Virus record (IMG/VR): IMGVR_UViG_3300028048_000047
Span: 64,001-128,000 of that record
DNA length: 64,000 bases
Strand: one strand, 5' to 3'
Source of the DNA: a virus
Taxonomy: Duplodnaviria > Caudoviricetes
The position numbers were made by a program, and so were the translations under genes. The notes beneath the pieces were generated by a model, which was not told where the DNA came from, made no database searches, and saw only the letters and a program-made list of their open reading frames with translations. Below are positions 2 through 63,429 of this stretch, piece after piece; the first letter of the stretch is position 1; each line of letters opens with the position of its first letter.

Positions 2-175
2 CATAATTCTAATTGTGTAGGATATTACTACTTTAAATCAAATAGTAATAGGAATAAATCAAAATATAAATTTGGTACTATTCCTCATTTTACACACAAA
101 TACAAATGGAAAAGAACACATAGAGGTAAAAGAGGTCTTATCACAAATGGTTACTATAAAGGAAAACCACAATAA
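2..175 (+). CDS. 3' end of a basic protein truncated by the window edge
   Basis: Frame 2 open from base 2 to TAA at 173-175 (…RGLITNGYYKGKPQ*). Confidence 0.5.
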   Translation, partial: HNSNCVGYYYFKSNSNRNKSKYKFGTIPHFTHKYKWKRTHRGKRGLITNGYYKGKPQ

Positions 176-17475: not shown

Positions 17476-18183
17476 ATGACAATAGAAGAAACATTAATTG
17501 AAATGGAAAAAAATGAAGCAGATGTTAAAATGAACATATTTCAAAAATTAACATATATTCAAAATGATTTGTTGGAAATAAATATTCCTAAAAATGGTAG
17601 AAATAAATTTGGTGGATTTTCATATTATGAATTAGATGATTTATTACCTCCAATTTTGAAATTATGCAAAGAATACGGATGTACATTATATTTCAATTTT
17701 CCTTTATCTAATGAAGGCGAATGTAAAAAAGGAGTGTTAAATTTAATTAATTGGGAAGACAAAGAAGATTGCATAAGAGTAGAAGTTCCATTTCCAAAAT
17801 TAGAAAAGTTACCGAAGATGAACTTTGCACAAAGTTCTGGCACTTATCAGACTTATATGAAAAGATATTTAATATTACATACATTTGATATTGTTGAAGG
17901 AGAAGTCATTGACTCAGGATTTTTAGAAAATTCAACTCAAAACCACAATGGAAACACACGAACTACTCCTAAAAAATCATCAAATGAAAATAAAAAGGAT
18001 AATGACATTAATGAACCTGCGTGTTTATCAAAAGTAATATCAAAATGCCATGAATTACATGGGGAAAAAGAATGTGATGGTAAATTGTTAAATAAAGTTT
18101 CATTACAAATGTTTAACAAAAAAGAATTAACATTAGATGAACGAAAAGAAATATTTAATTATGTTAAAACATTAAAAAAATAA
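17476..18183 (+). CDS. erf: ERF-family single-strand annealing recombinase
   Basis: NIFQKL..IQ, K.G.NKF..F.YYEL.D, Q..G…TY.KRY. Confidence 0.85.
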   Translation: MTIEETLIEMEKNEADVKMNIFQKLTYIQNDLLEINIPKNGRNKFGGFSYYELDDLLPPILKLCKEYGCTLYFNFPLSNEGECKKGVLNLINWEDKEDCIRVEVPFPKLEKLPKMNFAQSSGTYQTYMKRYLILHTFDIVEGEVIDSGFLENSTQNHNGNTRTTPKKSSNENKKDNDINEPACLSKVISKCHELHGEKECDGKLLNKVSLQMFNKKELTLDERKEIFNYVKTLKK

Positions 18184-48614: not shown

Positions 48615-49001
48615 AAAACATTGTGTACTTTGTGGGGGAAAAATTGGATTTCATTATTATACACTACCATTTGGATTTATTTGTTATGACTGTGGAAAAA
48701 AAATAATTGAACATTTACAAGTTGTGATTGAAAATGAATAAAAAAAAGGAGAGATGTGAATTAATTGAAGGAGGGTGGATAGGTGATGAAAAAGAACAAC
48801 ACTTTTCAATAATCTTTTATGACATTCACAAAAACCGTAAACATTTTTTTAGTTTTAAAGGAATAGGAAAATATAGTAAACATAATGAAAAAGAGTTACA
48901 TAACTTAACTGAATTAATTAATAAAGTATTAGCTGAAAATGAACAGTTAAAAAATGAAAGAGATATTGAAAATGGAATGAGAAATCTTTGAGTGGAATTG
49001 T

Positions 49002-49271
49002 ATGAGTAAAAAAAGATTTAGAACGGGTAACGGAATTTTTAAAGGAGATTATTTTTCAGAAGCAATAATTGATGAAAAAACTGGTGAAAGATATTATGAT
49101 GGAATAAAACCAAATTATGTGAGTTCAAAAGAAGTGTGTGAGTTATTAAATAATTATGAAAATAATTTAAATAACAAATATTTTAATATTGAAAATAGAA
49201 TCTCTAAAATGGAAGAGAAACTACAAGAAATAGAGTATTATTTTAAAAAATATCAAAAAGATATAAACTGA
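49002..49271 (+). CDS. MTEKRF family protein
   Basis: MSKKRF…VCELLN. Confidence 0.7.
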   Translation: MSKKRFRTGNGIFKGDYFSEAIIDEKTGERYYDGIKPNYVSSKEVCELLNNYENNLNNKYFNIENRISKMEEKLQEIEYYFKKYQKDIN

Positions 49272-49507
49272 AATTTGTTTTAATTGTTTAAATGGGAACA
49301 AAAAGGAAGGTGATTAAACATGATTGAAAATAGAGGATACCCTAAAACTACTGGGTATCTTAAAAAATCACATCATAAAAGTTTACAATCTGAAATTATT
49401 GATGGTAAGTGGATAAATAATAAAATAGAAGAATTACGAAGATTAGGATATTCTGATGAATATATTAATCAAGAATTAGGACATTTAGTTAATTGGAGGA
49501 TTTAAAA

Positions 49508-49816
49508 ATGAGTGAAAATAAACGATTTATAGGTTCAAGTGGAGGGGTCTATGACCAATATAAAAGTGATAGATTTGCTTGGTCTGAATGGGAAGAAATT
49601 ATTCAAATAATGAATAATTTAAATGAAAAAGCAATAGAAAGAAGTAAAGCATTATCTAAACTACAAAAAGTGAATGAAAAGTTAAAATCAAGGAATGGTA
49701 ATCTATTAGAAACATTAGCATTCCGTAGTAATCAGTTAGTATTATTAGAAGAATTAATTGATGATTTAGGTAGTGAAGAGATGGTAAAGCAGATGGGGGA
49801 GATTTTGAATGGGTGA
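49508..49816 (+). CDS. MTEKRF family protein
   Basis: MSENKRF…IMNNL…NEKLK. Confidence 0.7.
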   Translation: MSENKRFIGSSGGVYDQYKSDRFAWSEWEEIIQIMNNLNEKAIERSKALSKLQKVNEKLKSRNGNLLETLAFRSNQLVLLEELIDDLGSEEMVKQMGEILNG

Positions 49817-49968
49817 AACACAATTAAAAAAGTTTAGAGTTGAAAAAAGTAGTAGAATAAATGCTTTTTGCGTTACAAATGATAGGTATTCAGTAGTATT
49901 ATTAAAAGAGAATGAAGCGGGTGCTGTTTGTAACATGCTAAATAGAATGATAAAGGAGTTGGAATGAA

Positions 49969-50265
49969 ATGAATTCAAAGAGATATAAAGTGTACTCAGA
50001 TAGTTATAGTGCTGATATTGTTGATGAGATTACAGGTAATAATTATAATCAAATAACTGATATTGAAGATATATGTGATTTGTTAAACAACCAATATGAA
50101 CTGATTGAAAGAGTAAAAAAAGTAATGAAAGAGCATTATAATAACTCAAAAAAGGATTATGAACGAGCAGTTAAAGGAGGTATGCCATCATCAATATTAT
50201 ATGATGAAATGAGTCAAATTGAAGATATTATGAATGAAATTGGATTAGAATTAATTGGGGAATGA
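49969..50265 (+). CDS. MTEKRF family protein
   Basis: MNSKRY…ICDLLN. Confidence 0.7.
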   Translation: MNSKRYKVYSDSYSADIVDEITGNNYNQITDIEDICDLLNNQYELIERVKKVMKEHYNNSKKDYERAVKGGMPSSILYDEMSQIEDIMNEIGLELIGE

Positions 50266-50345
50266 TAAAAATAGTAAATTTTATATTTCTCCAAAGATTT
50301 ATCATAAAATTTGATGATAAAATAAAAAAGATGGAGTGAATTGAA

Positions 50346-50708
50346 ATGAGTATAAAGCGATTTGAGAATAGATTAGATAAATCTAATATTAAATTTAATA
50401 CACAAAATCCTGTATGGGATAATGAGAAAAAAGATGCTTTGAATGTGTTTAAAATGATTGATTTATTGAATGAATTATATGATGTGAATAAAAAGTTGGA
50501 AAATGATTTAACTGATTGTAAGAAGCTTAAAGGGAAGAGATTGAATAAAATTAGAAATCATCGTGCAGTTATTGAGGATTTAGGAGGTGCAATCCGAACA
50601 TATAAAGGACAAATTTCTCAGTTGAATGAAAAAATTGATAAAATAAAAGGAGTAATAGATGATGATGGTGTTTTAACGAAAAGGGAATTAAATGATATTT
50701 TGCGTTGA
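50346..50708 (+). CDS. MTEKRF family protein
   Basis: MSIKRF…WDNE…DLLNEL. Confidence 0.7.
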   Translation: MSIKRFENRLDKSNIKFNTQNPVWDNEKKDALNVFKMIDLLNELYDVNKKLENDLTDCKKLKGKRLNKIRNHRAVIEDLGGAIRTYKGQISQLNEKIDKIKGVIDDDGVLTKRELNDILR

Positions 50709-50740
50709 TTTGTTTATTCTTCAAAAAATATGATATTGGT

Positions 50741-50768
50741 TAGTAAAGTTTATATAGTATCATAGATA
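50741..50768 (+). promoter_or_regulatory. Archaeal promoter
   Basis: tagtaaagTTTATATAgtatcatagata. Confidence 0.65.
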
Positions 50769-50791
50769 ATACATTATTATGAGGTGAATAC

Positions 50792-51103
50792 ATGGTATCT
50801 AAAAAAAGATTTAAGATGGAAACAATTGGAAATACAATGTTACCATTTATTGTTGATATTACTACTGCAAAAATGAAATCAAATACAATAACTACTTATC
50901 ATACATATGAAACACATAGAAAAGAAAAATGTTTAGAATTAGTTGATTTGTTAAATGAGCAACATGAAACAATCCAAAAATTAGAAGAATATTCGCAAAG
51001 GATAAATGAAACACTTCAATCATTTTCAAAAAGAGATTTAACAGATATTGAAAGAATATTTTTAAATAATCTTTGTAAGGAAATAGGTGTTGATTTAGAA
51101 TGA
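50792..51103 (+). CDS. MTEKRF family protein
   Basis: MVSKKRF…VDLLNE. Confidence 0.7.
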   Translation: MVSKKRFKMETIGNTMLPFIVDITTAKMKSNTITTYHTYETHRKEKCLELVDLLNEQHETIQKLEEYSQRINETLQSFSKRDLTDIERIFLNNLCKEIGVDLE

Positions 51104-51319
51104 CTAAAAAACAACAGAATAAATTAAAAATATATTTAATATGGGAACGCCACAATGGTGTTGAGCGAAGGTTGAAAACTGGTTATATGGATAAGAAGTC
51201 TGCTTATAAGAAAGTAGAAGTCTGGAATAATCGGGAGAAGAAAGAAGATTGTGGGCATAGGTATTATGTTCGTGAATTTGAAGTGTATAAGAATTAATTA
51301 AAAAATGGAGGAGTAGTAA

Positions 51320-51604
51320 ATGACTGAAAAAAGAATGGTGGATTGTTTGAGATATACTGGTGGGGCAAAATGTCATTTTACTGGTGAATTTTGTAATGAT
51401 GAGTATGCACAAACTTGTGAAGATTATAAGTCAGAAGATGGATTGTATGAGTGTCCCTATTGTAATTTGAAAGGATTAAAATTATTAGATTATGGGTCTG
51501 ATAATGTATGGGAATGCTTACGGTGTGGGGCAGAATTATGGTTTTGTGAAAGTGTCGGTGAGATGCAACAAAGATGTAGGGAAATTAGAGAAAAGAGAGA
51601 GTGA
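51320..51604 (+). CDS. MTEKR-start Cys-rich/zinc-ribbon protein
   Basis: CPYC…CLRC. Confidence 0.65.
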   Translation: MTEKRMVDCLRYTGGAKCHFTGEFCNDEYAQTCEDYKSEDGLYECPYCNLKGLKLLDYGSDNVWECLRCGAELWFCESVGEMQQRCREIREKRE

Positions 51605-51751
51605 ATTCTTATGGGAGGATAAGAAAATTTAAGATGGGGGTGATGGATGTTATTGGTTTTATTGTATTTGTATTAGTAGTAGTGTTCTTGCTTTTGATGG
51701 TGTTTGTGTTGGTAAGGGATATGTTCTTCCAGTAAAAAAATAAATATATGA

Positions 51752-52051
51752 ATGGTGGTGTTATTAATGGATTTATTGTTTGATATGTTGAATAAACGGC
51801 AAGAGTTTGTTCAATCAAAAATAGAATATCTTAATAGTATTAATGATTTTTATAATAATACTATTAAGGACTTGAAATTGCATTTTAGGGGTAATAGATT
51901 ATATTTGACTTTTAATTCTTGGGAAGAGATACCATCTACTATGACTATGGATTTTTGTAATGAGTTTGGTTATCTTGCACCGACTTGTATTTATAATGAT
52001 GCTTATGGATTGATAATTAGAACTTATAAATTTATTAAGATATTAAATTAA
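51752..52051 (+). CDS. FC(D/E/N)xF family protein
   Basis: DFCNEFGY…TYKF. Confidence 0.6.
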   Translation: MVVLLMDLLFDMLNKRQEFVQSKIEYLNSINDFYNNTIKDLKLHFRGNRLYLTFNSWEEIPSTMTMDFCNEFGYLAPTCIYNDAYGLIIRTYKFIKILN

Positions 52052-53047
52052 AAATAAATATTGTGGTGGTGATGTGATGTTGGAATTTCCACATAAATTA
52101 AATATTAATAATAAAGGTATAGTTAAACGGTATAATACTGTTGAGAAAGGTGAGTCTAATTGGTGGTGGGTTTGGTATGATGGTGATTATCTACCTACAT
52201 CAACTGTTGTTCATAAATTAAATGATTTAACTGATGAGAATATTAAGTTACAAGCAGAGAATGAAGTGTTAAAATCAAGAATAAAAGAATTGACTTCACA
52301 GTTAACTGAAACTGGAAAAAGGGAGTAACTGATAAAAATGAATGGTCGGAGTTATAATAAGTTTATGATAATTTTATTGTTATTACTAATTATAGGTCGG
52401 ATAATATTATCTTATTTCAATATTAATTGGGTGAGAACTGTTAGTGCTTATGATTTTATAATAATTGTAATATTATTTTTTAACTGTGGTGTGTATTTTT
52501 CAATGGATTTCATCGATTAAGTAAAAAAAAGAATGGGTGAAAGAAAATAATGAATGGTGGTGAAAAAATTGGTTAATTCTATTGATGTTCCAGTTCTTAA
52601 AGTTGATAATATACCTGAAGAAGCATTAGATGAGATATATGAATTTCATGAAAAAATTAATAAAAAATATGAAGGTTATCGTATAGATAATGATTTAAAA
52701 ATGCAGTTAAATCAAGATGTTATTTTATTTAACCGTAAGATACAAGTAAAATATGATGATTGGCTTAAACCTACTGTGAAATTAATTGGAAATCTTGCGT
52801 ATCATAATGTAGAATGGGTATTGTCTGATGTATTACATGAGCATGAAAAATATTGTAATGAAAAACACGAAATAAAAAAACAATATACTCGAATTGAAGT
52901 TAATAATATGTTATTTGATTTACAGATAATTGATAGAATTCGTAATTATTCTTGTGTTGCATTACCTTATAGTTGTACAGAAGAATATAATAATAAGATA
53001 TTTCCACATGATGAAAACATAGAAGTGGAATGTAGATATTAATAAAA

Positions 53048-53551
53048 ATGATGGGGGTTTTGAATTTGTTTGAAAATAAAAGATTTATTGGTAAGTATGA
53101 ATGGCCTGAAACAAAAGAGAATATGTTAATGGGGTTATGTCCTATGAATTATCATAATATATCAGATAATGATTGGAGTTTTGGAGATGCAGAAAAATTA
53201 CATGCACAAGGTTATCATGAAGAAGCTAAACAAGTAAATGAAATACTTGGAGATAGATTAATTAAATGGACAAAAGCCCATGAAGAAGAGTTTGAATTAT
53301 ACTATACATATGACACAATAATAATTCAGACAGAAAATATTTTAGAATGGAATGAAGAATTACATGATGAACTATGTGATGAGTTCAATGTAATATTATT
53401 GGAACACAATAAATTGAAAACATACCAACATGATAATTTTAAATTGAAATACAGTTATATTTACATAGCATGGATAGATACTAATCGTATTCATGAACTT
53501 GAAAAAACCAAGAAGAAGTATAATCTTAACTGGAATGAAATTAAATTTTAA
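53048..53551 (+). CDS. Hypothetical protein (KRF start, LCDEF motif)
   Basis: ENKRF; ELCDEFNV…YSYIY. Confidence 0.6.
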   Translation: MMGVLNLFENKRFIGKYEWPETKENMLMGLCPMNYHNISDNDWSFGDAEKLHAQGYHEEAKQVNEILGDRLIKWTKAHEEEFELYYTYDTIIIQTENILEWNEELHDELCDEFNVILLEHNKLKTYQHDNFKLKYSYIYIAWIDTNRIHELEKTKKKYNLNWNEIKF

Positions 53552-54735
53552 AGGATGGATGGTATTATAGACAATAAAGGATTTAAGTTAAAATTATGCT
53601 TAAATAAATTAATGAAAGAGAATGAAGAGTTAAAAAAAAGAAATGATAATTTAACTGTGGAAATTAATGAGTTAAAAAATCAAGTTATTAAATTATATGA
53701 ATTCTTAACTTCAAATGGTTATGAAAATGATGAGTTTAATGTTTGGTTTATAAATGAAAAAATTAATAGATATATTCATGATAATACTATTGAAGTTGAT
53801 GAATTACCATTATATGGTAATGAAATGTTAATTTATCAATTACCTAACAAATTACAATATATCTATTTTAAAAAAAAATGGGAATGTATTGGTGAATTGG
53901 AAGATTAAATGATATTAATGAAAAAGGAGTAGTGATGGAAATGAGTATTAATAATTTTTGGGGTGACCATGTAAGTGGAAGAATTATAGAATTAACAGAT
54001 ATTATTTGGGAAGATAATTCTGAAATATGTATTCGTGAATTACCTTTACAAGAAAATGGTAAATATGGGTCACCCCAATTATTATTATCAGAAAAACCAT
54101 CTGATGACTGTTTAGAGAAACTTCGTGAAATGTATCGTATACGATTTTTTAAAAATGATGATGTTAATGATGATTATAAATATTTAATGACTGTGGAAAC
54201 TTTACGATTTAGTTTTGAAGAAGATTGGCATTGGAATGGTGTAAGAAACGATAAGATACAATCATTATCCAAAGAAATATTGAATAATCAATGGGATTTT
54301 GATGGGTATTTTTATATTACTGATGAATTAAATAGTTATCGTAAACTTGCAGTAATACCATTTAAACAAAGTACTGACCTTGATAGTGGATTTAATTTAG
54401 AGAGAAGTCAAGCATTAACATTAGTTAAAAATATTGTGAAAAAATTGAATGATGGGGAATTTATAGTATAAAAAAACAGTTGGACTGTATTAAGGATAGT
54501 ATAAAAAAAATATGGGACGATAAAATGATTGGTGAGTTAATAAGTTTATTAATATTTTGTGTTACATTTGTGCTTACATTCTCATTATTAAGTCATATAG
54601 AGCATTTAATGTGGAAGGATTGGTTTTACGGGAAAAATAGTTGGTGGAACATACTCTATAAAAATAGATAATAAAAAAATGGTACGGGACAGATATTGGA
54701 AGCATTTTTAAGGCATTTGATAAGGAAGTGGAAGA

Positions 54736-55197
54736 ATGAATGAAAAACGATATTCTCATGATGCTATTGTTATAGTAGACCATTTAAAAAAAGATTTAAT
54801 TTATATCGATGGTAAAGATGAATTATTGGAACTTGCAGAATATGTAGATATATTACAAGAAGAGAATCTGAAATTAAAATCATTTATTAAACAGAAACAA
54901 TGGACTGGTGGAATAGAAATGACTGAAAAACGATTTATAATTGATGTTGAAGAAACAACACAAGAAAATGCTTTATTTGAAAATGGTAAATTCGTTTGTT
55001 TTGAAGATGATACTGATGAGTATTTGAAAAAAATAAATGAAATGTCAGATGAAATTGTACAGTTAAAACAATTCCAAGAACAAGTTACAAGTGTTATTGA
55101 AAGTAAAATGGGTGATAATGTATGCAATGATTACAAAATGGAAGTGTTGAAAGAGATATGGGACGAATTAGAATTAGATGAAGTGTGGTTTGAATGA
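54736..55197 (+). CDS. In-frame fusion of two MTEKRF cassettes (second start at 54919)
   Basis: MNEKRY…ENLKLK…WTGGIE-MTEKRF. Confidence 0.7.
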   Translation: MNEKRYSHDAIVIVDHLKKDLIYIDGKDELLELAEYVDILQEENLKLKSFIKQKQWTGGIEMTEKRFIIDVEETTQENALFENGKFVCFEDDTDEYLKKINEMSDEIVQLKQFQEQVTSVIESKMGDNVCNDYKMEVLKEIWDELELDEVWFE

Positions 55198-55464
55198 GTG
55201 AAAAACAATTCAAAAAGATGTGGGATAATCATTATGAAAACATTCTAACAATTGGTAACCTAAAAGAAGTAATTAAAGATTTAAATGATGATTTACCAAT
55301 AGAATGTAGTGTTCATAAATTAGATAATACTTACATTATTAAAGAAGCATCTTTATGTGGTAATATGGTCGAAGAACCTATCTTACAATTAGAAATTAAA
55401 ACGGATTGGGAACTAACTGAAAGAGATGAAAAAGCATTTAAAGAATGGTGTAAGGTGGAAGATA

Positions 55465-55803
55465 ATGACTGTAAATAAACGATTTAAAGGTGGACAAGGG
55501 AAGGTTAGTGATGTTGGAGAGGATTTAATATTTAAATTATTATGTTTAATTGCAGAGGAGAATCAAGAGTTACGAACAAAAAACAATACTTATATTCAAG
55601 ATATAGAAACATATAGAGAAGAAAATACTCATTTAAAGTTAGAGAATGAAGAGTTAAAGAATAATATGAAAATTAAATTATGCAATAACTGTATTTATTG
55701 GCGATTGGGTACTGCGGGTCTTAATGATAATTATTGTAGTTTAACTGATGAATGGGCAGATTGGGAAGGGACTTGTGAAAAATGGAAGGGTTATCATGAC
55801 TGA
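55465..55803 (+). CDS. MTVNKRF family protein with C-terminal 4-Cys module
   Basis: N-half nearly identical to the 57494 gene. Confidence 0.7.
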   Translation: MTVNKRFKGGQGKVSDVGEDLIFKLLCLIAEENQELRTKNNTYIQDIETYREENTHLKLENEELKNNMKIKLCNNCIYWRLGTAGLNDNYCSLTDEWADWEGTCEKWKGYHD

Positions 55804-55917
55804 AAACGATTTAAAGAAGTTATTTTCACATGGATAGATAGTGGTGGTGAATATCATTATGAAAGAAGAATTGTTAGGGATATTAAAAAAGAAAAGGAGT
55901 TGAAAAAAGATGATTGA
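55796..55917 (+). pseudogene. MTEKRF cassette with 1-nt deletion in A run
   Basis: atgactgaaaacgattt (4 A, not 5); adding one A gives a 40-aa ORF ending on the next ATG. Confidence 0.65.
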
Positions 55918-56221
55918 AAATGCACGATTCCTATTTGTCATTGACAATGGAGAACCAACATTTTATGATTTAAGTAAAAAAGGCAAAACAATGGATATGA
56001 ATGAAACAGAAGATATGTTAAATGAGTTAAACAATGAGAATAATGAATTAAAACAATTCCAAGAAAAAGTATTTGATTGGATTGATAAAGAAATTTCTCA
56101 AAATGAAGAAGCAATTGAATGGGGAGAAAAGCAAGGTGCAGATGTGGGTGCAATGGGTTTTTATACAAATATGCTTAAAATGTTCCAAAAGGATTTTGCA
56201 GATGGACAATACAATAAATAG
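55910..56221 (+). CDS. MTEKRF family protein
   Basis: MIENARF…MLNELNNENNELKQFQE. Confidence 0.7.
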   Translation: MIENARFLFVIDNGEPTFYDLSKKGKTMDMNETEDMLNELNNENNELKQFQEKVFDWIDKEISQNEEAIEWGEKQGADVGAMGFYTNMLKMFQKDFADGQYNK

Positions 56222-56253
56222 TTACCATGATATTTTAAAATAGAGGCACGAAA

Positions 56254-56622
56254 ATGAATGATGAGAGATTTTGTATTTATAGTAAATCAACTGATAGTAA
56301 TGTGTATGATAGAGTTGAAGACCAATATTATAGTTGGGATACTATTGTGGATTTATTAAATCATATAATTCCAAATGATGCAGATGTTTTAGAGTTGTTG
56401 GATATTCATATTGAAAATAATAAAACATTAAAAGAAAAACAATTGGATTTTATTGTTAATTTATTATTTGATATTCGTTGTTATAGTGATGTGCATTATA
56501 ATGAATTATTGGGTGGTGAATTAGCAAGAGCAGAAGCGTTAGGGTTTAATGTTGAAGATTCAAAAAATTGGGATTATGATGAAGAAAGTTATGAATTTTG
56601 GAAAAAGAAGTTACAAGAGTGA
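56254..56622 (+). CDS. MTEKRF family protein
   Basis: MNDERF…VDLLN. Confidence 0.7.
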   Translation: MNDERFCIYSKSTDSNVYDRVEDQYYSWDTIVDLLNHIIPNDADVLELLDIHIENNKTLKEKQLDFIVNLLFDIRCYSDVHYNELLGGELARAEALGFNVEDSKNWDYDEESYEFWKKKLQE

Positions 56623-56644
56623 GTGGACGGGAGGTGTTGGAAAA

Positions 56645-57028
56645 ATGAATTATGAAGAAAAATACACTTGTAAAAAAATTGAAAACCCAGTAACAAAAGA
56701 AGTAAATAATTATATACAATATAATGATACCACTATATTAAAATTAAATTCAATAACTGATTGTAAGAATGTATGTCAATTATTGAATAGACTTGATGAT
56801 ATAATTGAGGATTATAAATCTTCAATTGAATTAAAAGAAGAGGGGATGGTGTGTAAAAATGATATATGGGATACTTGGGAGTTGATTAAACCAGTTGCAA
56901 ATATGGTTTTATGGAATTGGGGATTAAAATTAGTAGGTGCAAATGATTCTTATAATCTTATTTGTTTTGATACTGAAAAATTTGAAAAAAAATTAATTGA
57001 AACAATTGAAATTAATAAAATGGTTTAA
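56645..57028 (+). CDS. LLNxL family protein
   Basis: GGAGGTG RBS; VCQLLNRL. Confidence 0.65.
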   Translation: MNYEEKYTCKKIENPVTKEVNNYIQYNDTTILKLNSITDCKNVCQLLNRLDDIIEDYKSSIELKEEGMVCKNDIWDTWELIKPVANMVLWNWGLKLVGANDSYNLICFDTEKFEKKLIETIEINKMV

Positions 57029-57285
57029 ATAAAAAAAGTATGGGTAAATGAAAGTAAAGGATTTCCTTGTTAATTTTGTGAAATTGGAGGATTAAATTAT
57101 GAGTGAAGAAAATATACATATGAATTGTGAGAATTATAATCCTAAAAGGGATATGTGTCTTAAATGGTTTGAAGAAAATGTGTCAGAGAAATATAAGATT
57201 TGTAAAGAATACTCTGAATTTGATGATAAAAAGTTAAGTATGAAATGGAGTAATTAAATTAATGAAATGTTATTGTAATTTAAAG

Positions 57286-57338
57286 TTTAAAACGAAACAT
57301 TTATATGTGATGATTTACTAATAATGTAATAGTAAGTC
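57286..57338 (+). promoter_or_regulatory. Archaeal promoter (TTTAAAACGAAA class)
   Basis: Near-duplicate of 2197-2249. Confidence 0.7.
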
Positions 57339-57493
57339 AAAAGAATAAAATAAATTTTAAGGAGTGAAAGAAATGACTAAAAAAGTGATATTTGAAATGG
57401 ATGTATTTGAATTGATTGAGTGGATAAATAATAATCCGTTAACTATGGCTTATTTATATGCTCTTGAAAGAAATGGTATTTTAGGTGGAAAGA

Positions 57494-57757
57494 ATGACTG
57501 AAAATAAACGATTTAAAGGTGGACAAGGGGAAGTTAGTGTTGTCAGGGAGAATTTAATATTTAAATTATTATGTTTATTTGCAGAAGAGAATCAAGAATA
57601 TAGGGAAGAAAATACTCATTTAAAGTTAGAGAATGAGAAGTTAAAAAATGTTATAGTATTTGCTTATACACTTATGAGTCTGAACACTATTTCAGATGAA
57701 GAATATTCTGAGTTTTATGAGTTATGTGAAAATATGGGGGTGAGTTTGAATGACTGA
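57494..57757 (+). CDS. Chimeric MTENKRF family protein
   Basis: N-half matches 55465 gene; C-half matches 57750 gene. Confidence 0.75.
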   Translation: MTENKRFKGGQGEVSVVRENLIFKLLCLFAEENQEYREENTHLKLENEKLKNVIVFAYTLMSLNTISDEEYSEFYELCENMGVSLND

Positions 57758-58082
57758 AAAATGGATTATTAAAAATGGAGAAATTGTAGATACAACCAAT
57801 AATATAACCTTTGATTCATTCATGGAAATCATAATAGTGCTAAACGGACAATCAAGACAATTAACTCAAATGTCAAAAGAAAATAAGAAGTTAAAATCAA
57901 TTTGTCAAGACCATCGTGACCATGCAATTGATTTTAAAGCAGATTGTGTAAGATTAGAAAAAGAGAATAAAGAGTTAAAAAATATTATATTATTTGCTTA
58001 TACACTTATGAGTAAAAACACTATTTCAGATGAGGAATATTTTGAGTTTTATGAGTTATGTGAAAAAGTAATAAAACAATAG
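57750..58082 (+). CDS. MTEK family protein
   Basis: 8-nt ATGACTGA overlap; ENKELK. Confidence 0.7.
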   Translation: MTEKWIIKNGEIVDTTNNITFDSFMEIIIVLNGQSRQLTQMSKENKKLKSICQDHRDHAIDFKADCVRLEKENKELKNIILFAYTLMSKNTISDEEYFEFYELCEKVIKQ

Positions 58083-58093
58083 GATTTGTAAGA

Positions 58094-58645
58094 ATGATTG
58101 ATTATAAAAGTATAGCCGAATTTTATTTAGAAATTTGTAGTAGAATATCAAAAACAATTTATGAAGCAGAACAAAATGAAAAAACAAAGGAAGATGCTAA
58201 AAAAGATTTTGATAGTATGTATTGGAGTTTTGATAGAGCAAAAAGTAGAGCGCATGATGTTTTACAAATGCACAAATATTGGAATGAAAAAGACTTTGAA
58301 CACTATGGTTTAGAACAATTATCCAGTACAAGACATCGTATAGAACATTTTTTAGAAGATTGTTTACTTACTTACCCTGATTGTTGTTATACTTTTGATA
58401 AATATGATGATATAATTATAGATTATTATAAACCTATTAGATTAAATGGGGGTCAAGAACATCATGAAAAATGGAAAAAATATTATAAATTGAACCATAA
58501 AAGGATTATGATTAATTACGGGTTAGTTAGGGATTTGAAAGGAGCATATGATTATGTGAAAGATGATGAGAAACACTTAATTGATGAAATGATGAAATTA
58601 TGTAAGAAATTAGAAGGTTATGATGAAGAAATGGCAAACGATTGA
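58094..58645 (+). CDS. Hypothetical protein
   Basis: 183-aa ORF. Confidence 0.7.
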   Translation: MIDYKSIAEFYLEICSRISKTIYEAEQNEKTKEDAKKDFDSMYWSFDRAKSRAHDVLQMHKYWNEKDFEHYGLEQLSSTRHRIEHFLEDCLLTYPDCCYTFDKYDDIIIDYYKPIRLNGGQEHHEKWKKYYKLNHKRIMINYGLVRDLKGAYDYVKDDEKHLIDEMMKLCKKLEGYDEEMAND

Positions 58646-58663
58646 AAAGGAGTTACAATAGGA

Positions 58664-58918
58664 ATGACTAAAAAAAGATTTGAGATAAATAATCTTGTAA
58701 AAAAAGGCACTATGAGTTTTTGGGATAATGAAAGCAAAGCAATTTTAAATGCAAGTCATACACTTGATTTATTGAATGAATTATCAGAAAAGAATGATGG
58801 ATTAAAAAAAGACTTGTTTGAAACAAGAAAAGATTATTTGATTGAAACTGCCGACATCTCCGATAAATTATATTTGGACGAGATGATTGAAAATGAACGA
58901 AAGGAGATATTTAAATGA
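58664..58918 (+). CDS. MTKKRF family protein
   Basis: WDNE…LDLLNEL. Confidence 0.7.
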   Translation: MTKKRFEINNLVKKGTMSFWDNESKAILNASHTLDLLNELSEKNDGLKKDLFETRKDYLIETADISDKLYLDEMIENERKEIFK

Positions 58919-59040
58919 AGGAATGTTGTGCAAATTGTCAATATTTCAGATTATTAAACGATTTTGAAATGTATTGTACTAAAAAGGAGAGTTATACATT
59001 TCATTTGAATATTTGTGAAAAATGGAAAATGATGAGATAA
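58915..59040 (+). CDS. Small 4-Cys protein (41 aa; not in ORF track)
   Basis: CCANCQY…C…CEKW; ATGA overlap. Confidence 0.55.
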   Translation: MKECCANCQYFRLLNDFEMYCTKKESYTFHLNICEKWKMMR

Positions 59041-59045
59041 AAATA

Positions 59046-59177
59046 ATGACTGAAAAAAGATTTACATTTAATAGTGATACTGTTGCAACAAATTTAAAAA
59101 CACCTATTGTTTATGATAATAAAATAATGAATATATGGGAAGTATTAGAAAAATTAAAAATGGAGTTGAAACTATGA
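59046..59177 (+). CDS. Short MTEKRF family protein (43 aa; not in ORF track)
   Basis: Ends in ATGA overlap with the MTDKP start at 59174. Confidence 0.6.
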   Translation: MTEKRFTFNSDTVATNLKTPIVYDNKIMNIWEVLEKLKMELKL

Positions 59178-59355
59178 CTGATAAACCAATTGTTCCTCCC
59201 GAACAATTTCTATATACTCTAATCAATCAGATGATGGATAAATATGAATCTCATCCATTAACAAGAGCTGTATTTGAAATGGGCTATGTTAAAGAAGGTT
59301 ATAGGTTAGATTGGAATAAAAGATTAGATGAAAATGGAGAATGGAGTTGTAAAAA

Positions 59356-59631
59356 ATGACTGAAAATAAACGATTTAAATATTCATATTCATTGGAAAAA
59401 GTATATGACTGCGATACTTTCAATGGAGAAACAACAGAAAGTTACGGGACATTTGAATGTTGTGATATGTTAAATCAGTTAAATGATGAGAATGAGCAAT
59501 TAAAATCTGAAAACAGAAATCTTAAAATCACTATTAGTGCAAGAGATGCATTAATTGAAGTTTGCGAGGAAAAATTCAGGGAATTAGGATTCATTATAAC
59601 TGTTGATGATAATGGATATGTGATAGAATGA
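59356..59631 (+). CDS. MTENKRF family protein
   Basis: MLNQLNDENEQLK. Confidence 0.7.
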   Translation: MTENKRFKYSYSLEKVYDCDTFNGETTESYGTFECCDMLNQLNDENEQLKSENRNLKITISARDALIEVCEEKFRELGFIITVDDNGYVIE

Positions 59632-59732
59632 CTGAATATTATATATATATATATGGATACAGAAGATAAATTACCTGCTATTCTCCCAAAATATAATTAT
59701 TATTGTACCTACAAGAATGAGGAGGAAGATGG

Positions 59733-60209
59733 ATGACTGAAAAACGATTTTATGTTGATAAAAATGGGGATTTTAGAGATACCAAAACTGGTAATATTAT
59801 AGTTGATTTTGGTTATTCCTTTAATGGAATGGACTGCAAAATGATTTTAGATTTGTTAAATAAGTTAAATGATGAATGCGAGTTTCTTGAAATTGAAAAT
59901 GAATCATTGGAAGATGGTGCAACAAAATATGCAGAATTATATCATAAATCATTAAAAGAGAATGAGGAGTTAAAACAACAATTAAAAACAAGAGTAATTG
60001 TTAATAAACAGTATGAAGAACTCCAAAGACTTAAAAAAGAGAATGAACAGTTAAAAAAAGTATTAGGTGCAATATTACTTGAAGTGAGAAGAGATATTTC
60101 AAATACGAATCAAACTGGTGAAATAAAAGTATTTATCAATCCTAATAGTTTTGATTTAATTAGTGAAGTATTAAAGAAGTATGGAGCATTAAAGGGATGG
60201 TATGAATGA
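59733..60209 (+). CDS. MTEKRF family protein
   Basis: LDLLNKL…ENEELK…ENEQLK. Confidence 0.75.
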   Translation: MTEKRFYVDKNGDFRDTKTGNIIVDFGYSFNGMDCKMILDLLNKLNDECEFLEIENESLEDGATKYAELYHKSLKENEELKQQLKTRVIVNKQYEELQRLKKENEQLKKVLGAILLEVRRDISNTNQTGEIKVFINPNSFDLISEVLKKYGALKGWYE

Positions 60210-60511
60210 CTAAAAAACGATTTATTTTAGTTGAATATGTTAATAAAGGATTGTTTATTCAAGATAATGCTAATGATGAAACACAATATTTTCAAGGGAG
60301 TAAAGCATCATTAGAAAAAGTTGTTAATTTGTTGAATAATTTAAATGATGAGAATGAGCAGTTAAGACAACGAAACACTAACCAATACAATCAATTAACT
60401 GAATTATGGGAAATAATTGAAGAAGAAAACTGGGAAAAACTAATTGCAATGAAGAAACAATTAAAAGAAGATGAGGAACGATTACAAAAAGAATGGGGGT
60501 GTTATGAATGA
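60206..60511 (+). CDS. MTKKRF family protein
   Basis: VNLLNNLNDENEQLR. Confidence 0.75.
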   Translation: MTKKRFILVEYVNKGLFIQDNANDETQYFQGSKASLEKVVNLLNNLNDENEQLRQRNTNQYNQLTELWEIIEEENWEKLIAMKKQLKEDEERLQKEWGCYE

Positions 60512-60729
60512 CTGAGATAGCATTAAGTTGTATTGATTGGGCTATCCTATTATTTGAAATGTTAATTGCTATGATTATCTTTGCAATCGTGAAAGGATGG
60601 TATGATAGTAGAAGATGGGAAAATCATATTTATCAAATATTGGAGGAATATCGTGCTAAATATGGGGTAGATAGTGGTTGTGAACTGTTATTGTATAGGA
60701 AAACAAATAATGAGGTGGAAGATGACTGA
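60508..60729 (+). CDS. MTE-start membrane protein
   Basis: TM segment; junction motif at both ends. Confidence 0.6.
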   Translation: MTEIALSCIDWAILLFEMLIAMIIFAIVKGWYDSRRWENHIYQILEEYRAKYGVDSGCELLLYRKTNNEVEDD

Positions 60730-61252
60730 AAAACGATTTAAGATGAAAAAACTTGAATATGAATCCTATTTTATTGATTCTCAACAAGAGTATGTTGATG
60801 AAGATGAGCCGAATTTTAAGATTGATGGTGAAAAAACATTGTCAGATTCACAAATTCTTGATTTATTAAACGAGAATGAACAGTTAAAATCTGAAATAAA
60901 AGATTTGAATGATGTACTTACAAGATACGAAGAAAAGGATTTACAAAAAATGAAGAAGGATACTCATATGGATGATGAATTAAGTTCTGATGAATTTTTT
61001 AAGAAATACATGGACGAAATGGACAAAGTGGGTTATGAAGTATTTGGGATTCGTTATATGGATGATTATGTTAATCTTTTCCCAAGTGAAGATGAACAAG
61101 CAGTTCGTGATAGTTTAACAAGATTTGCAGAATCATTCCATAAAGGACATAATGCCCTACCTGTTATAATATTGGTTAATAAATATTATATTAAATCATG
61201 GTTAGAAACTGGTAATGTTAAGGACGGTTATGGTAATTTGGTTAAATTATAA
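60722..61252 (+). CDS. MTEKRF family protein
   Basis: LDLLNENEQLK; start 60722 rather than 60674. Confidence 0.75.
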   Translation: MTEKRFKMKKLEYESYFIDSQQEYVDEDEPNFKIDGEKTLSDSQILDLLNENEQLKSEIKDLNDVLTRYEEKDLQKMKKDTHMDDELSSDEFFKKYMDEMDKVGYEVFGIRYMDDYVNLFPSEDEQAVRDSLTRFAESFHKGHNALPVIILVNKYYIKSWLETGNVKDGYGNLVKL

Positions 61253-61542
61253 AAATTATGTAAAATACTATTTTATGATAATGAAAAAAATTAGTTATAA
61301 TTGTAAATAATTTTGAAGGAGAGTTATAACTTGTGAAAAAAAAGAAGTTTATTAATTTTACTGACCGTGAAAAATATTGTATAATGATGGGTGTATGTTT
61401 AGGTATGATAACTATTCTTACAATTTTATTGCTTTACCTATATTTACCAGAAACCTCAGTACTTGAACAAACGGCGATAGTTTGTTTTATTGGAGGGGGA
61501 GTAGTAATGTATGTATGTAAATGGATATTGGAGGAGTAATGA

Positions 61543-61779
61543 ATGACTGAAAAAATTATTATTGAAATGGAAGTTACTGATTGTTTTCATTGTAAGTTTT
61601 TAAATTCAAGTGATACTGGTGAAAATTGTAGTATATTACGAAAGGGTATTCAAGAAGATGAATGGAGTAATATTAATTTCCAATTTGAAGAGGGTTGGAG
61701 ATATGAGAAATGCCCTTTGTTCCATAGGGGGTATATTTGTAGAAATTGTGGAGTGAAAGTACTGGAATTGGGAGAATGA
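61543..61779 (+). CDS. MTEK-start Cys-rich protein
   Basis: CFHC…C…CP…CRNC. Confidence 0.6.
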   Translation: MTEKIIIEMEVTDCFHCKFLNSSDTGENCSILRKGIQEDEWSNINFQFEEGWRYEKCPLFHRGYICRNCGVKVLELGE

Positions 61780-63429
61780 TTGATGAGTTATCTTTAATAA
61801 TTATGTTAATAGGGGTAGTGTTATTCATTGTTATCACATATTTTCATAGTGATTTTGAAAATTCACTTAATAAAATAATGGATGAATCTTGTTACTACTG
61901 TATCTATTCAACTGAACCATATACTATAAGAAATGAGGATAAAAATACTTGTAAAAGAATAAATAATCGTAATTGGACAAGTAATCAGATAAGAAATTGT
62001 AGATATAGGGTGAAAGAATGACTGAAAAATATTGGGTTAAGTCTATCATAATGAAGAAAGTTTTGAAGATATGGATTGTAGTGCCAAAGGAGGAAGTATG
62101 ATGAAGTTACCATATTTTCTTTTCAGTAGTTTTAATAGAAAATCACTTGTTTCATTTAAAAATTTAAAAAAGAAGGAAGATAGAAGTTATGATTATATCT
62201 TTGGTATTAATGGATATTATAATTTTCAAACTAAAAGTAAATATCATATGATAAGGGGTTTTATTGAATGAGTGAAAAACGATGTCATAGATGTGATAAT
62301 GTAATTAACAGTATAATTTACTGGGATAATGGGATATGGTGTTATTGTTTGGATTGTAGTCATTATATTATTCAAGAGTTGTATGGGTGAATTTGAATGA
62401 CTGACGATTTATTGATAAAAGTAGGGATGATAATAGCATGGGCATGTAACACAATTACATTTTATAAGAGATATAACCTTAACAGAAAGATGATAGAGGA
62501 ACAAGATGATTAAAAAAGATATTATACGAAAGTTTAAATCAAACTGGGAATATACCGAAGATGAAGAATGTTTCACTATAAAAGGTGATTTAGTTGAACC
62601 TATTGTTGTTGATGGTTGGACTCTTGATGGTGTTAATATTAACTTACCGAAGCATATGGTTTATAGGGATTATGAAGTCTTTTGGAGTGAAGTGAAAGTT
62701 AAAGAATTAGTTAAAGGATTAAATAATAAAGATATACCTTTTTATGTGGATGGTAATTTGAATTTTCGTTTAGAGAATATTAGTATGAATATTTATAGTA
62801 ATGATGAATAAGAGTAATATGAGAGTGATGTTATGGGTACTCGTATGGATGGTACTGATTTCCAAAGATGGTATATGGATAAGTATAATGATGTAATTAT
62901 TATTTTAAATGATGATAATCGTGGATTATATGCAGAATATCTTGAAGATAAAAAGAGAGAAAGAGAACAACTAATATGGATTATTTGTGGAATCTGTACA
63001 ATAACTTATATTATTATTTGTATTACATATATATTTCCAATTATAAATTTATAAAATTTGTAAAAAAATGGAGTGGAATATAAAAAAAATAAGATGGTTA
63101 GTAAGGAGGTAGTAAATGTTATTGAAAGGAATATCATTAGATAATAAAATTATTAAAAAAGCAATTTTCAGATTATATGAGTGTGATACATTACTTGATA
63201 TTACTTTTATAGATAATGATGATTGTGAAATAATTAATATGGGTTTTGCATTACACGAACTCGGGGAAGTTGACCGATTGCGTGATGGTTTAATAAATCA
63301 AGGAATAGTAGTGAACTGGACATTGACTATAACTTGTGATGATGAGAGTATGACTGCTACAATGGATTGCTATGAAAATAAGGATTATTCATTCAATGAT
63401 TTTTAAATTAAATTGGGAGGGTGTGATTT

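Follow-up and report, generated by a model that had tools for sequence, protein, structure and literature searches.

The virus record IMGVR_UViG_3300028048_000047 (Duplodnaviria; Caudoviricetes) is a contig of 195,936 bp with 26% GC, rated complete by IMG/VR and CheckV, which carries nearly all of its open reading frames (ORFs) on the plus strand. We analyzed bases 64001-128000 of this record (the window, 64,000 nucleotides), in which a long array of small genes begins, many of them opening with the same short piece of DNA, here called the start block. Positions are those of the window unless given as genome positions, and the genes and blocks described within the window lie on the plus strand. 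The genome encodes a terminase, a portal protein, a tail tape-measure-like protein and a baseplate protein. Its closest terminase in a phage collection is that of Methanobacteriales virus BK063677 (54% identity), and the exact 18-nt start block is present in seven contigs of ruminant Methanobrevibacter metagenome-assembled genomes in a search of 596 Gb of prokaryote genomes. The other exact matches, about 18 single occurrences in unrelated bacteria, equal the chance expectation for 596 Gb, so only the Methanobrevibacter and rumen matches are informative. The nearest terminase and the matches in Methanobrevibacter contigs point to a tailed virus whose host is most probably a rumen Methanobrevibacter.

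The array spans genome 105.7-156.8 kb, or about 27% of the genome. Its part within the window (41740-64000) is recognizable by M..KRF heads and ATGACT starts, and a further 28.7 kb of it lies beyond the window. By simple gene calling the array holds about 180 small, tightly packed plus-strand genes, and about 75 genes begin with the same 6 to 18 DNA letters. KRF-type heads (n = 63) and ATGACT starts (n = 75) are concentrated in genome 105-157.5 kb and almost absent elsewhere; the first M..KRF head lies at genome 105,740 and the last at 156,554. A first-pass annotation, made from the window alone, had placed an array at 49-62 kb; the array is real, but about four times larger than described. 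A final start block (genome 156734-156754) stands in frame at the extreme 3' end of the gene at genome 156554, which ends in KKMTEKHS and a stop, and resembles a terminal half-junction.

The consensus of the start block is ATGACTGAAAA(ATAA)ACGATTT. It occurs in an 18-nt form, ATGACTGAAAAACGATTT (MTEKRF; 59733-59750, also 54919 and 60722, with close variants at 60206, 58664 and 59046), and in a 21-nt form, ATGACTGAAAATAAACGATTT (MTENKRF; 57494-57514, also 59356, and as ATGAGT... at 49508). All 20 positions from which the first-pass annotation had drawn the motif bear ATGA(C/G)T(G/A)A... starts; two of these (55796 and 59628) head stubs of 13 aa and one (62018) an ORF of 27 aa. The core ATGACTGA is found 70 times on the plus strand, 69 of them in the array, and not once on the minus strand, with 3.8 copies expected per strand. 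Because 65 of the 70 copies head ORFs of at least 30 aa and only five head stubs, they are live gene starts and not debris. With no minus-strand copies, the idea that an antisense block encodes a regulatory RNA was also rejected. The motif is not a generic preference in the letters after ATG: TGA occupies positions +6..8 in 83 of 156 array genes versus 24 of 287 other genes, and a block prefix of at least eight letters opens 60 of 156 array genes versus none of the 287 outside the array. The exact 18-mer recurs in 48 IMG/VR stretches. The literature searched makes no mention of the motif or of the protein family described below.

One stub (55796-55837; MTENDLKKLFSHG) has a start block with a run of four A instead of five; the other frame meets no stop before the next gene begins. 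A normal A5 run would let translation continue as far as that gene and yield a 40-aa MTEKRF product ending in an 8-nt overlap; the stub is either a fresh pseudogene or a slippage-prone site.

Since the block holds a TGA in both other frames (within ATGA and within ACTGA), almost any upstream neighbour ends on it. Both geometries that follow from this are present. In the 4-nt ATGA overlap the stop of the upstream gene overlaps the following start, as for the gene 59733-60209 at 60206-60209, and likewise at 60508-60511. In the 8-nt overlap the upstream gene runs slightly further: the gene at 60508-60729 ends ...GAC-TGA within ATGACTGA at 60722-60729, with equal geometry at 55796-55803, 57494-57501 and 57750-57757. 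The in-frame case is represented by a fusion at 54736-55197, where a 61-aa family head reads through into the MTEKRF gene starting at 54919. These overlaps, the fusion and the double stop had all been read correctly in the first-pass annotation. Across the array, overlaps of -4 or -8 nt occur in 60 of 156 genes versus 19 of 289 elsewhere, a 6-fold enrichment. Among the 60 ATGACTGA genes, the upstream stop lies inside the block in 34 (57%), and the upstream gene shares the downstream frame in only six. There is no conserved sequence upstream of the block beyond the Shine-Dalgarno sequence. The overlap pattern fits termination-reinitiation coupling, which Huber and co-workers in 2019 reportedly described for ATGA-type overlaps in both bacteria and archaea. 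The 4-nt and 8-nt geometry is common to the known cases and the array; known coupling concerns single gene pairs, whereas the array reuses one fixed 18-nt sequence about 60 times.

The conservation of the start block is at the level of DNA and not merely of the encoded peptide. Genome-wide, threonine is encoded by ACT in 47% of cases and arginine by CGA in 7.6%, whereas in block genes the Thr2 codon is ACT in 75 of 81 and the arginine codon is CGA in 45 of 63 (p about 1e-36). Codon 2 of the 63 KRF heads shows 19 non-synonymous variants (AGT, GCT, ATT, AAT and others) and no synonymous ones. Of these 63 heads, 62 have T at base 6, where the frame +2 TGA begins, and this base is more conserved than bases 4 and 5. 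The ACT and CGA usage is maintained in three relatives with 31-34% GC. This codon usage, together with the absence of synonymous codon-2 variants, excludes free synonymous variation in the block, an outcome that would have counted against the first-pass proposal by its own terms. Two other accounts of the CGA codon were discarded: avoidance of poly-A, because the MTENKRF form has no long A run and still has CGA, and a viral tRNA for this rare codon acting as a timing device, because the genome is without tRNA genes.

Much of the sharing of starts is paralogy, because 60 of the array genes form one protein family. A profile hidden Markov model (HMM) of this family, built and searched without the first 8 residues, picks up 60 genes of the array, of which 45 have a KRF head; the relationship is detectable without the shared N-terminus. 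The alignment runs from MTEKRF through a variable stretch with I-x-D and a conserved LLNxLNDENEQLK segment to a variable coiled-coil tail. Alignment columns average 13% identity and the bodies are unalignable, while R5 is more than 90% conserved. A typical member of 101 aa (60206-60511) is modelled by AlphaFold2 (pLDDT 96.5) as a three-stranded beta meander (residues 6-28) followed by one long helix (33-100), and the first strand of the modelled fold begins at F6. The family has 790 metagenomic relatives, all unnamed. It gave no significant Pfam match (best E-value 0.002, far below cut-offs) and a single weak PHROG match, to a family of unknown function. Searches with the fold returned nothing at E <= 0.001 from the PDB with Foldseek (weak WW-like matches only), generic coiled coils with VIA-align (Z about 6) and unnamed clusters in the ESM Atlas. 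The variability of the heads suggests a role in an arms race.

The block is not confined to this family. About 47 further block-headed genes (18 KRF-headed and 29 MT-headed) fall outside it, among them Cys-rich proteins (51320-51604, 61543-61779 and 62268-62390), membrane proteins (such as MTEIALSC... at 60508-60729, outside the family HMM set) and an HNH-like gene. Relatives carry the same head joined directly to a PAPS-reductase domain, whose Pfam match begins at residue 7. The proposal that unrelated cargo shares the junction holds for these 47 or so genes, but 60 genes, including most of the coiled-coil cargo, belong to one paralogous family. The HNH-like gene (genome 133921-134259) starts with MTEKKLF, and its 77%-identical relative has a perfect MTEKRF block start; a nuclease inside the array could seed recombination.

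A second block lies inside the family genes. This internal zipper block codes for LLNxLNDENEQLK and is likewise conserved as DNA, with the rare codons GAG, CAG and TTG. ENEQLK is encoded as GAGAATGAGCAGTTAAAA in nine of 24 copies, where 0.09 would be expected, and in the zipper alignment columns GAG accounts for 20 of 27 codons and CAG for 21 of 24. One copy of the ENEQLK-coding part is at 59488-59505, and further window copies are at 48935, 60039 and 60872. The conserved isoleucine and aspartate columns between the two blocks follow the codon usage of the genome background, so the constraint is specific to the blocks and does not come from the youth of the genes. In IMG/VR the zipper 18-mer occurs in 63 stretches, and it frequently shares a locus with the start block.

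Sequence relationships break on both blocks. The 'head' cassette at 59733-59875 matches genome 139486-139628 with 91% identity, starting at the ATG and ending at the zipper block. Beyond it the two genes have different tails, and the tail of the gene at genome 139486 matches instead the gene at genome 119910. Other chimeric family members also switch parent at conserved blocks. In comparisons with relatives, the ends of BLAST matches show a 3.1-fold excess on start blocks (p 5e-12) and a 2.3-fold excess on zipper blocks. All eight abutting parent switches in relatives, which join distant parts of the genome, fall on a block: three on the start block and five on the ENEQLK-type block. The relative L028 displays both at base resolution, following the gene at genome 151985 to ATGACTGAAAA, then the gene at 143102, and then switching within GAGAATGAGCAGTTAAAAAA to the tail of the gene at 150336. 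A single gene body is seen under four different heads (MTENKRF, MVRKQF, MTEKRF and MTKKRF), with unrelated DNA upstream. The L028 virus is a complete 42-kb genome whose array pieces are 93-98% identical to those studied here despite a terminase that is only 46-50% identical, which points to recent exchange between distant virus lineages.

The comparison among relatives and paralogs bears out the first-pass expectation that breaks would fall on the start block. It also amends it: the zipper block serves as a crossover at least as often, and because this second, internal block is used, the units of exchange are half-genes as well as genes. The picture of plug-and-play cassettes joined at the start block survives in several of its parts (a start conserved as DNA, unrelated proteins headed by it, TGA in the other frames, breakpoints on it), but paralogy is large and half-genes are exchanged too.

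We consider it probable, with some room for doubt, that recombination at homology blocks shuffles heads, tails and genes in a mosaic accessory array, and that the start block doubles as an overlapping stop/start joint. The start and zipper blocks are kept identical as DNA across paralogs and distantly related viruses, and under this reading homologous recombination would cross over inside them and homogenize them meanwhile. Heads (from start block to zipper block), tails (from zipper block to the next start block) and whole genes would be exchanged, duplicated and lost as units, both within one genome and among co-infecting viruses. Nearly any upstream neighbour would terminate on the start block, and a newly joined gene pair could be expressible at once, because the next gene can restart by termination-reinitiation. 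The enzyme may be the single-strand annealing recombinase of the ERF family that the virus encodes at 17476-18183 (PF04404, 52.7 bits, above cut-off). Recombinases of the Erf type are efficient on diverged DNA (PMC3945230), and we infer that the viral protein is a candidate for the exchanges.

Several observations weigh against this interpretation. The blocks are short: their 11-20 identical nt offer less homology than the substrates used in measurements of ERF or Red activity. Homogenization by recombination and direct selection on the block each predict the codon pattern, and R5 and F6 are probably structural as well in family members. Breakpoints at gene borders are also expected from random illegitimate joins filtered for intact genes, an objection that only the intragenic breakpoints on the zipper block escape. 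The relatives are metagenome contigs, in which assembly chimeras at repeats are possible, although the repeats concerned are shorter than the usual assembly k-mers.

A bolder version of homology-block shuffling treats the start block as an evolved universal adaptor of 18 nt that stops the upstream gene, starts the next and provides homology, and that has been selected for evolvability. The block would be preserved letter for letter across the Methanobrevibacter virome because annealing recombinases could use it to plug any head, tail or foreign gene into an expressed array. Selection for exchangeability of this kind is a tentative suggestion, and we lean against it; the junction may instead be a side effect of homology within a gene family.

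Among the alternatives to shuffling, the one that survives best holds that the start block is mainly an expression signal, either a joint for stop/restart coupling or a site for an array-wide regulator, and that recombination is incidental. It draws on the upstream stops within the block (34 of 60 genes) and the rarity of a shared frame (six of 60), on a conservation that is highest beside the ATG and fades downstream, and on a junction RNA that is unstructured. We nevertheless find it unlikely. All 287 genes outside the array, the structural ones included, do without the block, and T6 is kept in 62 of 63 genes though only 16 neighbours use that stop. An expression signal also leaves unexplained the CGATTT part, which lies beyond both stops, and the codon signature and breakpoints at the zipper block.

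MTEKRF could work as an N-terminal peptide tag, for instance in targeting, processing or packaging, much as the internal proteins of T4 share a capsid-targeting sequence, but we find this distinctly improbable. The same six residues are carried by unrelated bodies here and in relatives, and the high conservation of R5 in the family would suit a tag. However, the synonymous sites are more conserved than the residues, as codon 2 with its 19 non-synonymous and zero synonymous changes demonstrates; the many partial prefixes (MT, MTE, MTEK) are a misfit to a fixed tag; and F6 opens the first strand of the modelled family fold.

Very little speaks for plain recent tandem duplication, in which the shared letters would be young and unconstrained. 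Some adjacent paralogs are 75-91% identical, and the gene at genome 153804 recurs at 154408, about 600 nt apart, with 75% identity and a match that ends inside the next start block. Yet the bodies of the family are unalignable at 13% mean column identity, codon usage at the conserved residues between the blocks is that of the background, viruses with terminases 46-64% identical still carry the same letters, and stubs follow only five of 70 copies. Most improbable is a true site-specific cassette system, integron-like or shufflon-like, with a dedicated recombinase that recognizes the junction: a tyrosine-recombinase-like ORF lies beyond the array and the HNH-like gene within it, but the recombinase match is below the Pfam cut-off, the junctions are without inverted repeats or hairpins, and crossovers also occur at the unrelated zipper block.

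The likeness to an integron drawn in the first-pass annotation does not hold in the parts that define such a system. Like integron arrays, it is a row of small, variable accessory genes that all run in one direction, apparently lack promoters of their own and come and go as units; it differs in having no attC hairpins, attI or IntI, and in an exchange that apparently depends on homology and not on a site. No attC-like hairpins were found in six 80-nt junctions, which fold no better than shuffles (z -1.0 to +0.8), and array genes overlap or abut, leaving no spacer for attC sites. A search of the whole genome with PF00589 gave no integrase above the Pfam cut-off, its one match (genome 165892-166350) scoring 25.5 bits against a cut-off of 27.1. 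The description of the array as integrase-free is therefore right at that threshold but not in a strict sense. The match lies in a tyrosine-recombinase-like ORF of 273 aa (genome 165862-166680), 9 kb past the end of the array, and hints at a possible temperate lifestyle or an Xer-like enzyme. A diversity-generating retroelement was rejected, as the genome has no match to the reverse transcriptase PF00078 and the heads differ by indels and unalignable sequence, not at adenines.

Recombining multigene families with homology blocks are known from MGF360/505 of African swine fever virus, the 'genomic accordions' of poxviruses, var of Plasmodium falciparum, vls of Borrelia and pilS of Neisseria. 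The array shares with them dozens of paralogs, conserved blocks that flank variable segments, segmental mosaicism and copy-number change. Unlike in those families, its 5' block coincides with a stop/start joint and has spread to non-family genes, and the exchange extends across different virus lineages.

Nearest among known systems is the modular shuffling of T4-type phages, and the array is best read as a coding-sequence variant of it. These phages carry about 50 short conserved motifs per genome, the promoter-early stem-loops (PeSLs), at the 5' edge of small ORFan genes in hyperplastic regions (PMC2839356, PMC4122927). Recombination between PeSLs leads to insertions, deletions and replacements, and the motif also has a role in expression (Arbiol et al. 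2010, PMC2839356; Comeau et al. 2014, PMC4122927). In the array, too, the small accessory genes of a hyperplastic region share a short conserved motif at their 5' edge, and differences between relatives start and stop on this motif. However, a PeSL is intergenic and comprises a sigma-70 promoter, a stem-loop terminator, a Shine-Dalgarno sequence and a start, whereas the array block consists of the first 6-7 codons without spacer, promoter or hairpin, and carries the stop of the upstream gene. The array also has a second, intragenic block that permits half-gene swaps, and its host is an archaeon.

Some other features of the genome stand apart from the two blocks. A separate family of intergenic repeats of 100-250 nt, with dozens of copies that each stop 1-8 nt short of a gene start, occupies genome 157-196 kb beyond the window, with copies inside the window at 2190-2300 and 57277-57348. 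These may be repeated promoter/leader modules of another gene class and a closer formal analogue of the T4 PeSLs. Tandem repeats of 54 nt are located at the contig start (genome 1-276). The large terminase (608 aa, genome 13375-15201) has about 140 extra residues (approximately 206-349) that are absent from relatives of 466-478 aa, and this segment could represent either a domain insertion or an intein-like element.

Very little work has been done on the viruses that infect methanogens of the gut and rumen. Here, about 27% of a 196-kb archaeal virus genome follows one recombining two-block 'grammar', and the blocks recur in dozens of viral contigs. The analysis defines a large unnamed protein family, and both 18-mers are practical markers for methanogen viruses in metagenomes. 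If the start block is an evolved adaptor, it would be a counterpart of the integron that works by homology and needs no integrase. Should the blocks be maintained for exchange, they would offer these viruses a simple path to fast turnover of accessory genes without a site-specific recombinase, and the PeSL idea would reach beyond intergenic regulatory cassettes into coding sequence, and beyond bacteria into archaea.

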